A stretch of 64,000 nucleotides of DNA from Eledone cirrhosa (lineage: Eukaryota), in assembly GCA_964016885.1 (NCBI GenBank), contig OZ024745.1, positions 72,974,001 to 73,038,000 on the forward strand. Reading direction: 5' to 3'. The notes under the pieces are model-generated. The model had not been told where the DNA came from. It did not search any database and worked only from the letters and a program-made list of their open reading frames with translations. The first letter of the stretch is position 1. Each line of letters opens with the position of its first letter. Positions 29,208 through 45,564 of the stretch are shown here, piece by piece. A program made the translations under genes and the position numbers.

Positions 29208-29474
29208 AAGTAATAAAAGATGTGTTTAAAGATTTTTCACTGGTTACATTGTAAGACATGGTCCATATATTTATTTCGTATCTCGCACCATCGTCTGATA
29301 TTTGTAATGTTATATTTTTCATGTGACTTGTTATATTTTTGGAACTGCCAAAATTACTTGTGTATTGAATTAACCATTCATTTCCAGAAGATACTGTGTT
29401 GTCAAATTTCCATTCAATAAAAGCACTATTTGTTGTAACATTTGTAACGATGGCATTAGTTGGTGGCAATGGAA
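29208..29474 (-). CDS. FN3 exon R14 (array-like 5' half, unique 3' half)
   Basis: cttacag|TTCCA...ATTACTT|gtaagt, 267 nt, phase 1-1. Array-like up to EWLIQY, then TSNFGSSKNITSHMKNITLQISDDGARYEINIWTMSYNVTSEKSLNTSFIT. Confidence 0.88.
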
Positions 29475-30342
29475 CTGTAAGAAATAAAATAAAACAATAT
29501 GACTTCACAATGTTATGGGAGAAACCTGCAGTTTGATTATTTACATTATTCTAAAATAAAAACATGATTTTAATACAATAACATTACTTTCAATAATAAT
29601 GATTAAATATATGAAATCTGATTCTCAGATTCAGAAACATATAATTTTAATCTAAATTATCAACATTTAATCATGTTAACTTTACATCCAATTTTCCATG
29701 TTGGCATGGGTTGGACTATTTGTTCTCTCTTTATACAAAATATACTGTCAAAAGAATGATACTATTGGTATTCTGTTACATAGACATATGTAGATTTAAT
29801 ATTATATATGAAACATTAAATTAACATTCAAATGAAGACTGTCCACAGAACATTACAGGAGATATCATAATCATCACCTTTAACAACTATTTTTCCATGC
29901 TAGTATGGGTTAGACATGTTCAGCTATAAGACAAGCTAGATCAGATGACCATGTCTTGCTCATACTGAACTGTCTCTTGCCTGGTTTCTACAGCTGGATG
30001 CCCTCCCTAATGCCAACCACCTTTACAGTGTCGACAAGGTGATTTTTGTTGTGACACGTAAAAAACTTTACAGTGTGGGCTGGGCACTTTTTTCCACCTA
30101 GTTATACCTGTAGATTATGAGATCTTATATGCCAGAGAAAGTGAAAGATATGATGTTCTGCCACAAAAACAGAAACACTAAACTGAAAAACATTAACAAT
30201 AGTTTTGGTTCTTCATTAACTGAAGATTTTGGATCAAATATGAAAAGATTTTTTTCCTAGGTAAAAGCCATAATATCATATAAAAAAATATCTTTTATAA
30301 GCTATTTTAAACATCTTAGAAAGATTCACTTCATATACTTAC

Positions 30343-30609
30343 TAGTAACAAAACTTGTGTTCAAATCTGAGTCACTGAATTTATTGTTAGATTTAGTCCA
30401 TATTTTTACTTCATATTTTTCACCAGGTCTTAAGGGGGTTAATATTATGTTTTCCTTGGTACTTGTTTCATTTATGTAATTATTGCTACCATATTTGTAT
30501 TGAATTAACCATTCACTTCCAGAAGATGCTGTGTTGTCAAATTTCCATTCAATAAAAGCACTATTTGTTGTAACAATTGTAACGATGGCATTAGTTGGTG
30601 GCAATGGAA
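30343..30609 (-). CDS. Tandem FN3 exon R13 (type A)
   Basis: Same splice sites, open frame. Confidence 0.88.
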
Positions 30610-31478
30610 CTGTAAGAAATAAAATAAAACAATATGACTTCACAATGTTATGGGAGTAACCTGCAGTTTGATTATTTACATTATTCTAAAGTAAAAACAT
30701 GATTTTAATACAATAACATTACTTTCAATAATAATGATTAAATATATGAAATCTGATTCTCAGTTTCAGAAACATATAATTTTAATCTAAATTATCAACA
30801 TTTAATCATGTTAACTTTACATCCAATTTTCCATGTTGGCATGGGTTGGACTATTTGTTCTCTCTTTATACAAAATATACTGTCAAAAGAATGATACTAT
30901 TGGTATTCTGTTACATAGACATATGTAGATTTAATATTATATATGAAACATTAAATTAACATTCAAATGAAGACTGTCCACAGAACATTACAGGAGATAT
31001 CATTATCATCACCTTTTAACAACTATTTTTCCATGCTAGTATGGGTTAGACATGTTCAGCTATAAGACAAGCTAGATCAGATGACCATGTCTTGCTCATA
31101 CTGAACTGTCTCTTGCCTGGTTTCTACAGCTGGATGCCCTCCCTAATGCCAACCACCTTTACAGTGTAGACAAGTTGATTTTTGTTGTGACACGTAAAAA
31201 ACTTTACAGTGTGGGCTGGGCACTTTTTTCCACCTAGTTATACCTGTAGATTATGAGATTTTATATGCCAGAGAAAGTGAAAGATATGATGTTCAGCCAC
31301 AAAAACAGAAACACTAAACTGAAAAACATTAACAATAGTTTTGGTTCTTCATTAACTGAAGATTTCGGATCAAATATGAAAAGATTTTTTTCCTAGGTAA
31401 AAGCCATAATATCATATAAAAAATTATCTTTTATAAGCTATTTTAAACATCTTAGAAAGATTCACTTCATATACTTAC

Positions 31479-31745
31479 TAGTAACAAAACTTGTGTTCAA
31501 ATCTGAGTCACTGAATTTATCGTTAGATTTAGTCCATATTTTTACTTCATATTTTTCACCAGGTCTTAAGGGGGTTAATATTATGTTTTCCTTGGTACTT
31601 GTTTCATTTATGTAATTATTGCTACCATATTTGTATTGAATTAACCATTCATTTCCAGAAGATGCTGTGTTGTCAAATTTCCATTCAATAAAAGCACTAT
31701 TTGTTGTAACAATTGTAACGATGGCATTAGTTGGTGGCAATGGAA
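31479..31745 (-). CDS. Tandem FN3 exon R12 (type A)
   Basis: Same splice sites, open frame. Confidence 0.88.
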
Positions 31746-42135: not shown

Positions 42136-42399
42136 TAGTAACAAAACTTTTGTTCAAATATGAGTCACTGAAGTTATTGTTAGATTTAGTCCATATTTTT
42201 ACTTCATATTTTGCACCAGGTCTTAAGGAGGTTAATGTGATTTCCGTGGTACTTGTTGTATTTGTGTAATTATTGCTACCATTTTTGTATTGAATTAACC
42301 ATTCACTTCCAGAAGATGTTGTGTTGTCAAATTTCCATTCAATAGTAGAACTATTTGTTGTAACATTTGTAACGATGGCATTAGTTGGTTTCAATGGAA
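42136..42399 (-). CDS. Tandem FN3 exon R3 (type B, 264 nt)
   Basis: Canonical AG/GT, phase 1-1, open frame. Confidence 0.88.
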
Positions 42400-43718
42400 C
42401 TGTAAGAAATAAAATAAAACAATATGACTTCCTAATGTTATTTTAGAAAGAGAAAGTAATTGAAAGCAAATCAGTTGTGAAAATGCATTTCACAATGGAG
42501 TACTGTTTACAAATAATTAATCATAATGCATTTCACAATGGAGCACTGTTTGAGATAATGAATAGATCACAATATGTCAATCCCTAACTCTAATTTCAAT
42601 GTGTCCCTTTGACACCTTAACCATTATAATGATGGCTTTTGTTCTTGAAAACTTGATAAATCTAATGCATTTCCTACTAAAAACTACTTACTGTCACACT
42701 TTATTTCATGTTTCAGAATCAATACTAAATACTTTTCCTAGTCCCTCCTCTTCAGAACTGCAATCTTTGGAACAATTATCCTGCTTTTCTACCCTACACC
42801 AACTAACATTACAAAGCCAAATTTCCTTCAAATGACACTCTGCTATCTTTAAAACAAAAAGGAAAAAGAAAGCAGGATACATAAATTAATGTAGTCCAAA
42901 ATACACTATGACTAATAATGATCATGGTTGTAAATCCTTTGATCAGAGGTCTGCTAAGCTAGAGCTGACATAGAGCTAAAAACTGCAATTTATCAAATTA
43001 TCAACAACAAAAATATGAACAGCAAAGACCTGGGTTCATCCATTTTTCATGTAAGTAGCAAAGCATAGGAATTTTTTTCTTCAAAATGTTATTATAAGCA
43101 GATGCTGACATTGCTCTTTATACATTTAAATGATACTATTGGTATTCTGTTACATAGACATATGTAGATTTAATATCATATATGAAACATTAAATTAACA
43201 TTCAAATTAAGACTGTCCACAGAACATTACAGGAGATATCATTATCATCACCTTTTAACAACCATTTTTCCATGCTAGTATGGGTTAGACATGTTCAGCT
43301 ATAAGACAAGCTAGATTAGATGACCATGTCTTTCTCATACTGAACTGTCTCTGGCCTGGTTTCTACAGCTGGATGCCCTTCCTAATGCCAACCACCTTTA
43401 CAGTGTAGACAAGGTGCTTTTTGTTGTGACATGTAAAAAACTTTACAGTGTGGGCTGGGCCCTTTTTTCCACCTAGTTATACCTGTATATTATCAGATTT
43501 TATATGTCAGAGAAGGTGAAAGATATGATGTTCTGCCACAAAAAGAGAAACACTATACTGAAAAAACATTAACACTAGTTTTGGTTCTTTGTTAAATGAA
43601 GATTTCGGATCAAATATGGAAAGATTTTTTCCTAGGTAAAAGCCATAATAACATATAAAAAAAAAATCTTCTATAAGCTATTTTAAACATCTTAGAAAGT
43701 TCCACTTCATATACTTAC

Positions 43719-43982
43719 TAGTAACAAAACTTGTGTTCAAATATGAGTTACTGAATTTATTGTTAGATTTAGTCCATATTATTACTTCATATTTTGCACC
43801 AGGTCTTAAGGAGGTTAATGTGATTTCCGTGGTACTTGTTGTATTTGTGTAATTATTGCTACCATTTTTGTATTGAATTAACCATTCACTTCCAGAAGAT
43901 GTTGTGTTGTCAAATTTCCATTCAATAGTAGAACTATTTGTTGTAACATTTGTAACGATGGCATTAGTTGGTTTCAATGGAA
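43719..43982 (-). CDS. Tandem FN3 exon R2 (type B, 264 nt)
   Basis: Canonical AG/GT, phase 1-1, open frame with FN3 W and LxPGxxY motifs. Confidence 0.88.
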
Positions 43983-45300
43983 CTGTAAGAAATAAAATAA
44001 AACAATATGACTTCCTAATGTTATTTTAGAAAGAGAAAGTAATTGAAAGCAAATCAGTTGTGAAAATGCATTTCACAATGGAGTACTGTTTACAAATAAT
44101 TAATCATAATGCATTTCACAATGGAGCACTGTTTGAGATAATGAATAGATCACAATATGTCAATCCCTAACTCTAATTTCAATGTGTCCCTTTGACACCT
44201 TAACCATTATAATGATGGCTTTTGTTCTTGAAAACTTGATAAATCTAATGCATTTCCTACTAAAAACTACTTACTGTCACACTTTATTTCATGTTTCAGA
44301 ATCAATACTAAATACTTTTCCTAGTCCCTCCTCTTCAGAACTGCAATCTTTGGAACAATTATCCTGCTTTTCTACCCTACACCAACTAACATTACAAAGC
44401 CAAATTTCCTTCAAATGACACTCTGCTATCTTTAAAACAAAAAGGAAAAAGAAAGCAGGATACATAAATTAATGTAGTCCAAAATACACTATGACTAATA
44501 ATGATCATGGTTGTAAATCCTTTGATCAGAGGTCTGCTAAGCTAGAGCTGACATAGAGCTAAAAACTGCAATTTATCAAATTATCAACAACAAAAATATG
44601 AACAGCAAAGACCTGGGTTCATCCATTTTTCATGTAAGTAGCAAAGCATAGGAATTTTTTTCTTCAAAATGTTATTATAAGCAGATGCTGACATTGCTCT
44701 TTATACATTTAAATGATACTATTGGTATTCTGTTACATAGACATATGTAGATTTAATATCATATATGAAACATTAAATTAACATTCAAATTAAGACTGTC
44801 CACAGAACATTACAGGAGATATCATTATCATCACCTTTTAACAATCATTTTTCCATGCTAGTATGGGTTAGACATGTTCAGCTATAAGACAAGCTAGATC
44901 AGATGACCATGTCTTTCTCATACTGAACTGTCTCTGGCCTGGTTTCTACAGCTGGATGCCCTTCCTAATGCCAACCACCTTTACAGTGTAGACAAGGTGC
45001 TTTTTGTTGTGACATGTAAAAAACTTTACAGTGTGGGCTGGGCCCTTTTTTCCACCTAGTTATACCTGTAGATTATGAGATTTTATATGTCAGAGAAGGT
45101 GAAAGATATGATGTTCTGCCACAAAAAGAGAAACACTATACTGAAAAAACATTAACACTAGTTTTGGTTCTTTGTTAAATGAAGATTTCGGATCAAATAT
45201 GGAAAGATTTTTTCCTAGGTAAAGCCATAATAACATATAAAAAAAAAATCTTCTATAAGCTATTTTAAACATCTTAGAAAGTTCCACTTCATATACTTAC

Positions 45301-45564
45301 TAGTAACAAAACTTGTGTTCAAATATGAGTTACTGAATTTATTGTTAGATTTAGTCCATATTATTACTTCAGATTTTGCACCAGGTCTTAAGGAGGTTAA
45401 TGTGATTTCCGTGGTACTTGTTGTATTTGTGTAATTATTGCTACCATTTTTGTATTGAATTAACCATTCACTTCCAGAAGATGTTGTGTTGTCAAATTTC
45501 CATTCAATAGTAGAACTATTTGTTGTAACATTTGTAATGCTGGCATTTGTTGGTTCCAATGGAA
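45301..45564 (-). CDS. Tandem FN3 exon R1 (type B, 264 nt, most divergent B copy)
   Basis: tttacag|TTCCA...GTTACTA|gtaagt, phase 1-1. PLEPTNASITNVTTNSSTIEWKF...LRPGAKSEVIIWTKS...SFVT. Confidence 0.88.

Follow-up and report, generated by a model that had tools for sequence, protein, structure and literature searches.

What kind of receptor is encoded by a gene that carries a long row of similar fibronectin type III (FN3) exons, and what drives the growth of such a row? The question is raised by a stretch of 64,000 nt ("the window") from the octopod Eledone cirrhosa (assembly GCA_964016885.1, contig OZ024745.1, positions 72,974,001 to 73,038,000), in which the gene lies on the minus strand; sister copies of it were mapped in 830 kb of the contig (G000:C5 in our coordinates). 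Architecture and tree show the gene to be an octopod Ptp10D-like receptor protein tyrosine phosphatase (PTP) of the R3 type. The explanation that we favour, with rather more confidence than doubt, is a receptor of variable length, its array built by unequal crossing-over, its amino acids changing in excess and its phosphatase slowed or turned into a trap by a WPG motif, with an outside binder as the likely driver.

The array runs from 45564 down to 29208 and comprises four exons of 264 nt and ten of 267 nt, each with AG/GT sites, phase 1 at both ends and no stop. An earlier, sequence-only reading of the window had described 14 such exons of these two lengths, and all were recovered in place. 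It had also taken every exon for a whole FN3 domain and the array for 14 amplified copies, which holds in part: of the four array exons that were scanned, three exceed the Pfam threshold for fn3 and A14 stays below it. A14 is a divergent end exon with 63% protein identity. The repeat proper is made up of 13 units, each an exon with its intron, 1132-1136 or 1574-1583 bp long. ESM Atlas gave an fn3 score of 0.96, and a single-sequence AlphaFold model was weak (predicted local distance difference test 62), its best structural matches being FN3 scaffolds at E ~3e-3. Within the array, a higher-order duplication of 6.1 kb includes 3270 bp of exact identity, and the units A4 and A9, as well as A5 and A10, are the same at every base. 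Sequons for N-glycosylation number 7-8 per 264-nt exon, 1-2 per 267-nt exon and 0-4 in the repeat exons of one sister copy (copy 3); predicted glycosylation is one axis of change among exon classes and copies. The intron of every unit holds a piece of a dispersed repeat (e.g. 29875-30100) with 17-45 other matches in the 830 kb.

The complete model has 30 coding exons (signal peptide, E2, A1-A14, B1-B2, C1-C3, PTP_tm, transmembrane (TM), P1-P7) and is open over 2003 codons, with no stop and with AG/GT at all internal junctions. As the sequence-only reading had proposed, a signal peptide lies upstream of the array; its belief that the flanking exons are unique fails for E2, which has three copies in the assembly. 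The R3 identity that it had suggested was borne out beyond the window start, where the TM and PTP exons were located. The exon at G000:C5:72949589 matches PTP_tm (PF18861, E=4.5e-11), the TM exon is hydrophobic and 55% identical to the O. vulgaris TM, and a single set of PTP exons in the 830 kb gives one cytoplasmic PTP domain. Among 180 candidates the sole protein match was an R3-type phosphatase of O. vulgaris, clustered with an O. sinensis protein; a tree of 14 chosen rows places the PTP domain with those of the Octopus and Argonauta orthologues (support 100/100), and a 33-row tree agrees. All marks of an R3 receptor PTP were thus found: signal peptide (by exon model and homology), FN3-only ectodomain, PTP_tm, one TM, a single PTP and a YxN. 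No convincing further small exon turned up in the juxtamembrane part, between C1 and C2 or as a DDEGI-like terminal exon, and the short C1-C2 join also occurs in Argonauta. Acceleration of the PTP domain is not claimed, its branch (0.23) being shorter than that of Argonauta (0.32). Run X4, which was aligned to the PTP region only and is taken as RNA by inference, its kind not being on record, joins L079 positions 652 and 3112 with CT..AC ends, which is the modelled 2459-nt P6-P7 intron. This joint is absent from the DNA-like runs X1-X3; it indicates that the gene is transcribed and spliced at least there. For window positions 29000-31500 no RNA run was listed, a negative without weight for expression; X4 contains 0.17 of the sequence words of that stretch, near the share of exons, and this figure is not counted as evidence.

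How far is this gene like its relatives? R3 PTPs (Drosophila Ptp10D; PTPRB, PTPRJ, PTPRH, PTPRO, PTPRQ) have, as here, FN3-only ectodomains with mostly phase 1:1 exons, one TM, one PTP and a YxN tail; phase 1:1 FN3 exons and a variable number of repeats are usual in R3, and protostomes have one ancestral R3 gene (PMC5336234, in part). The Ptp10D-like proteins of O. vulgaris (CAI9718161.1), O. sinensis (XP_036370794.1), O. bimaculoides (XP_014781630.1) and Argonauta hians (GAB1597278.1) share the domain order and are 70-77% identical in the PTP domain. Those of O. vulgaris and O. sinensis likewise have near-identical internal FN3 repeats (98-99% at an offset of 170 residues). They repeat a two-domain unit, A-B, four times, whereas the Eledone gene repeats A alone, which implies that the stalk expanded twice, by different units. 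Repeats in other relatives are mostly old: 30 of 31 proteins of non-cephalopod molluscs and annelids show at most 33% internal identity. Recent internal FN3 repeats were seen elsewhere in bird PTPRV-like proteins (55-86%, three tested), in one Ptp10D-like moth model (100%) and in one more relative (66%).

The repeat unit has 27 matches in three clusters, with 14 A-type exons in the window copy, 3 in copy 1 (same strand, about 220 kb away) and 9 in copy 3 (inverted); the 12 in the sister copies are all intact. This would correspond to 17, 7 and 13 FN3 domains, compared with 11 in O. vulgaris. The copies are about 98-99% identical. What has been shown of the copy-number variation proposed by the sequence-only reading is variation between these gene copies of the assembly, as distinct from individuals. 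A 2.1-kb deletion in the window copy has removed, in frame, one 267-nt FN3 exon that both sister copies keep. Contigs of runs X1 and X2 stop exactly at its junction. A hole in contig cover at 20140-20703 is given no weight, as records are removed by a filter. The 5' parts of the two copies outside the window (G000:C5:72715730-72859500 and 73151000-73256000) carry different transposon insertions, have no PTP exons in the assembly and lie at or near gaps of 200 N.

What changes in the array, apart from its length, are the amino acids. Distinct changes were counted over the 23 repeat exons of the three copies, with the three end exons excluded: 48 nonsynonymous on 207.5 sites, 6 synonymous on 56.5 sites and, in introns, 62 on 553 sites. 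The nonsynonymous rate is twice the intron rate (p=7e-5) and differs from the synonymous rate at p=0.04; the synonymous rate equals that of introns. The intron mutation spectrum predicts 23.9 nonsynonymous changes, whereas 48 were seen. This excess over intron change points to diversifying selection on the repeat exons. The claim that introns are as conserved as exons stands within one exon type (divergence 0.5% in exons, 0.9% in introns) and falls between types, where exons are two to three times more divergent (8.1% versus 2.8%). Eight non-repeat ectodomain exons compared across the three copies show 21-22 nonsynonymous versus 0-1 synonymous changes, the 267-nt exon missing from the window copy shows 3 versus 1 in the sister copies, and between O. 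vulgaris and O. sinensis 25 of 862 N-terminal residues are different, versus 2 of 628 C-terminal ones. Incompatibility of 370 out of 3081 site pairs, together with the 6.1-kb higher-order block, speaks for unequal exchange and conversion between units.

The cytoplasmic half is altered too. Its WPD loop reads WPGFEVP and lacks the general-acid Asp. Of 120 retrieved proteins with HCSAG, 119 have WPD, the lone exception being a disrupted model; the four cephalopod orthologues, those of O. bimaculoides and Argonauta included, keep WPD together with two or three tail tyrosines. Contigs of all three DNA-like runs (X1, X2, X3) cover the WPG codon without difference. Beside WPG, a Gly has become Glu, and the Lys before the CxxYWP motif, which we take to correspond to K120 of PTP1B, is Ile. 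K120 coordinates the catalytic Asp (PMC8031367, in part). The signature HCSAGVGRTG, the phosphotyrosine loop KNRF and the Q loop VQT are intact. The catalytic Cys is intact as well. Since changes of the Asp slow turnover by a factor of 100 or more and strengthen the binding of substrate (PMC7320164 and PMC4035576, both in part), the PTP domain is predicted to be slow or substrate-trapping, and the phosphatase to be weak or dead. A non-Asp WPD loop is likewise present in PTPRU and other receptor pseudophosphatases and in engineered PTP1B D181A traps, which bind and shield substrates (same sources). PTPRU belongs to R2B and has WPE and a broken phosphotyrosine loop; with its KNRF, HCSAGVGR and Q loops in place, the Eledone domain appears closer to a trap. 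WPG is absent from the WPD variants, found in PTPRQ-like proteins, that are listed in the accessible part of PMC5336234. The last PTP exon found lies at L079:550-653 (G000:C5:72900153-72900050) and is about 38 nt shorter than those of the Octopus orthologues. The tail is frameshifted relative to its relatives, with their VNKAFL-like motif in another frame; in the part found a single YxN is left, YHN in exon P7.

How could such a receptor work? Unequal exchange between phase-symmetric units would change the length of the stalk. All array exons would be joined in the mRNA, giving the 17 FN3 domains of the window copy as against 7 and 13 in the sister copies. An FN3 domain measures 3.5-4 nm, and the stalk would reach about 60-70 nm, versus 25-50 nm in the sister copies. 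Its length and glycan density would set the stand-off from the membrane and the exclusion from close cell contacts, and height and glycan load would govern the access of binders. A changing outside binder, a candidate agent only, may drive the amino-acid change, in the way suggested for CD45 (PMC4379584, in part). The driver could instead be a ligand of the host itself, since Drosophila Ptp10D is reported to act with its ligand Sas in cell competition. The intracellular part would bind and shield phosphotyrosine proteins instead of dephosphorylating them.

Several points weigh against this explanation. Against three ectodomains and three E2 exons, the assembly has a single PTP_tm and a single WPD-loop exon; copy 1 is cut off by an N gap some 10 kb short of where its PTP_tm is expected, and copy 3 sits on a 165-kb piece between gaps. 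The base-identical units A4/A9 and A5/A10 could also come from a mis-join. The substitution counts treat sites as independent although units recombine, and for the window copy alone 27 nonsynonymous versus 2 synonymous changes are borderline (p=0.053; p=0.008 against introns), as is the nonsynonymous share against the intron spectrum (p=0.059). Contigs lose minority alleles, so a WPD-bearing copy may be hidden. Argonauta too alters 8 otherwise invariant PTP columns, which makes a count of 8 by itself no sign of decay, and the WPD variants WPE, WPQ and WPI are known in R3 proteins (PMC5336234, in part). The inclusion of array exons in mRNA, the outside binder and the loss of activity are predictions.

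The first of these points could mean that the copies are an effect of assembly, which we consider unlikely: the sister copies would be uncollapsed haplotypes of one gene, the 14-exon array partly over-expanded and the length differences allelic. The near-identity of the copies, the gaps and the inversion of copy 3, and the 3270 bp of exact duplication fit this. So do the contig depths in runs X1-X3, which come from one sample, possibly the assembly's own and in that case not independent: the ratios of ectodomain flanks to PTP region are near equal (1.09, 1.07, 1.02) and not 3:1. A difference in copy number between these runs was rejected, the depth ratios being the same in both regions. Contig depth is a rough guide only and gives no copy number; read in this way, depth over one unit exceeds that of the flanks by a factor of 4.6-10, and the assembly has 7.7 units per copy on average, which argues against over-expansion. 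Copies 1 and 2 (the window copy) share one gap-free stretch, and every array has exon variants of its own. Contigs of the one sample bear letters private to each of the three copies, which is impossible for a single-copy diploid unless the sample was pooled; among 461 low-depth variant sites 40 were listed and 23 of these checked, of which 17 agree with copy 1 or 3 and 6 with neither. A restriction-site-associated DNA sequencing run (X5) gave almost no cover of unique sequence. In each of the three runs, contigs of the PTP region depart from the letters of the assembly at many sites. The copies are read most simply as three or more whole-gene haplotypes whose PTP halves the assembly has collapsed; two alleles and one duplicate would also fit.

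Relaxed selection, under which a duplicated gene decays and the array grows neutrally since phase 1-1 exons cost nothing, seems to us unlikely. It would account for WPG, the neighbouring Glu, the Ile before CxxYWP, the frameshifted tail, the deleted FN3 exon and a Ser in A1 where all of the other 22 repeat exons have Tyr. Neutrality, however, predicts a nonsynonymous rate equal to those of synonymous sites and introns, and it is twice both. None of the 26 A-type exons of the three copies has a stop or frameshift, where about two nonsense changes would be expected among the 23 repeat exons (weak evidence alone). The PTP domain is still 75-77% identical to the Octopus orthologues, compared with 40-58% for parts of the ectodomain, one of its introns is spliced in one run, and it is the best Ptp10D-like match in the assembly.

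Combinatorial splicing had been offered by the sequence-only reading. Whether in general or in the manner of Dscam, cells would gain many isoforms by choosing a single array exon or some of them; this is now left unsupported, not refuted, and we judge it improbable. Symmetric phase 1-1 exons can be skipped in frame, and the two exon classes differ strongly in glycosylation sites. Yet nine of the 14 exons are 97-100% identical in protein, so that choice would add little, 13 of the 14 share the same acceptor and donor, and FN3 exons of R3 genes usually have phase 1:1 (PMC5336234, in part). In Dscam-type genes docking and selector sequences pair and the alternative exons diverge; here most array exons are near-identical, and none of the exact reverse-complement matches of flanking introns to units stands out, 16-96 of 100 shuffles doing as well. 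That the sister copies are real ectodomain-only genes giving secreted decoys of different length beside one full-length receptor is very doubtful: their signal-peptide, E2, A, B and C exons are intact with AG/GT sites, neither the 830 kb nor the assembly yielded a PTP_tm, TM or PTP exon for them, and the similarity of copy 3 is lost about 44 kb before its gap, but the equal depth of PTP and ectodomain and the non-assembly letters in PTP contigs fit collapsed whole-gene copies better, and no terminal exon was identified for them.

From the variable-length receptor we would go one step further only tentatively, to a reading that we hold possible and not probable: the only Ptp10D-type receptor of this octopod may have become a small family of catalytically disabled, length-polymorphic recognition receptors, whose stalk length (7, 13 and 17 FN3 domains), glycan density and surface residues would owe their diversity to unequal exchange of exons and to positive selection. 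Such a family would match, in an invertebrate, the CD45-like or self/non-self receptors, with the stalk of O. vulgaris expanded independently. CD45 (PTPRC) has two PTP domains, the first active and conserved, and changes its length by splicing mucin exons. Like the receptor proposed here, it has a tall glycosylated ectodomain under positive selection; in CD45 this is bound by viral proteins (PMC4379584, in part), and its height excludes it from close contacts (PMC6170634, in part). The Eledone receptor, by contrast, varies in length at the genomic level and has an altered catalytic loop; the likeness is one of working, not of membership. A prior description of the locus was not found in a literature search of a mainly open-access library.

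The window is otherwise AT-rich animal DNA with remnants of long interspersed nuclear elements (LINEs). LINE-type elements lie in the first intron (48292-54183). A broken element at 58453-60049 (minus strand), of which one frame was scanned, gave no Pfam match; its frames resemble what is presumably a Penelope-like reverse transcriptase (RT) with a GIY-YIG nuclease. Long degenerate (TA)n arrays of up to 2 kb lie within the C1-C2 intron (262-11789). About 17-20 kb upstream of the signal-peptide exon, a noncoding-looking 1-kb tandem unit occurs in five copies in copy 1 and in two in the window copy.

Table 1. Features of the gene and its surroundings (window coordinates, unless a G000:C5 position is given)
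Feature	Position	Strand	Remarks
Signal-peptide exon (first coding exon, coding part), donor in phase 0	63795..63860	-	78% identity to O. vulgaris N-terminus (residues 1-23)
E2, N-terminal FN3-like domain, phase 0-1	46946..47168	-	weak fn3, below cut-off; 3 assembly copies
Tandem array, 13 units, two lengths, 6.1-kb higher-order duplication	29200..46293	.	
A1, 264-nt FN3 exon	45301..45564	-	8 sequons
A2, 264-nt FN3 exon	43719..43982	-	7 sequons
A3, 264-nt FN3 exon	42136..42399	-	8 sequons; begins first 6.1-kb higher-order block
A4-A7, four 267-nt FN3 exons	37593..41267	-	1-2 sequons each; limits 41267-41001, 40131-39865, 38995-38729, 37859-37593
A8, 264-nt FN3 exon	36022..36285	-	7 sequons; begins second higher-order block
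A9-A13, five 267-nt FN3 exons	30343..35153	-	1-2 sequons each; limits 35153-34887, 34017-33751, 32881-32615, 31745-31479, 30609-30343
A14, divergent 267-nt array end exon	29208..29474	-	found in all three gene copies
B1, first half of split FN3 domain, phase 1-2	26041..26164	-	
B2, second half of B1's split FN3 domain, phase 2-1	20873..20988	-	
Junction of 2.1-kb deletion	20703..20703	.	removes, in frame, 267-nt FN3 exon kept in both sister copies
C1, first of three exons of last FN3 domain	17113..17243	-	
C2, C3, PTP_tm, TM, seven PTP exons	G000:C5:72973942 to 72900050		beyond window start
Endonuclease and reverse-transcriptase frame, 716 codons	52033-54183	+	Pfam
RT and PHD frame, 408 codons	48884-50110	-	Pfam
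1-kb tandem unit	G000:C5:72832304-72837294 and 73056303-73058307		copy 1 and window copy, respectively
34-bp tandem array	G000:C5:72884752-72887771		
310-bp tandem array flanked by 2.5-kb inverted repeat	G000:C5:72918378-72923860		inside PTP intron
470-bp tandem array	G000:C5:73321074-73326351		

Genes for Ptp10D-type receptors are conserved and mostly occur in single copy, and their FN3 repeats are old. A stalk that is being rebuilt now, with an excess of amino-acid change, makes this gene a candidate conflict or recognition locus in cephalopods. Its natural variants of 7, 13 and 17 domains in nearly the same gene offer a direct test of receptor-phosphatase height versus signalling in an invertebrate, and a natural WPG trap, if true, would pull down its own substrates.

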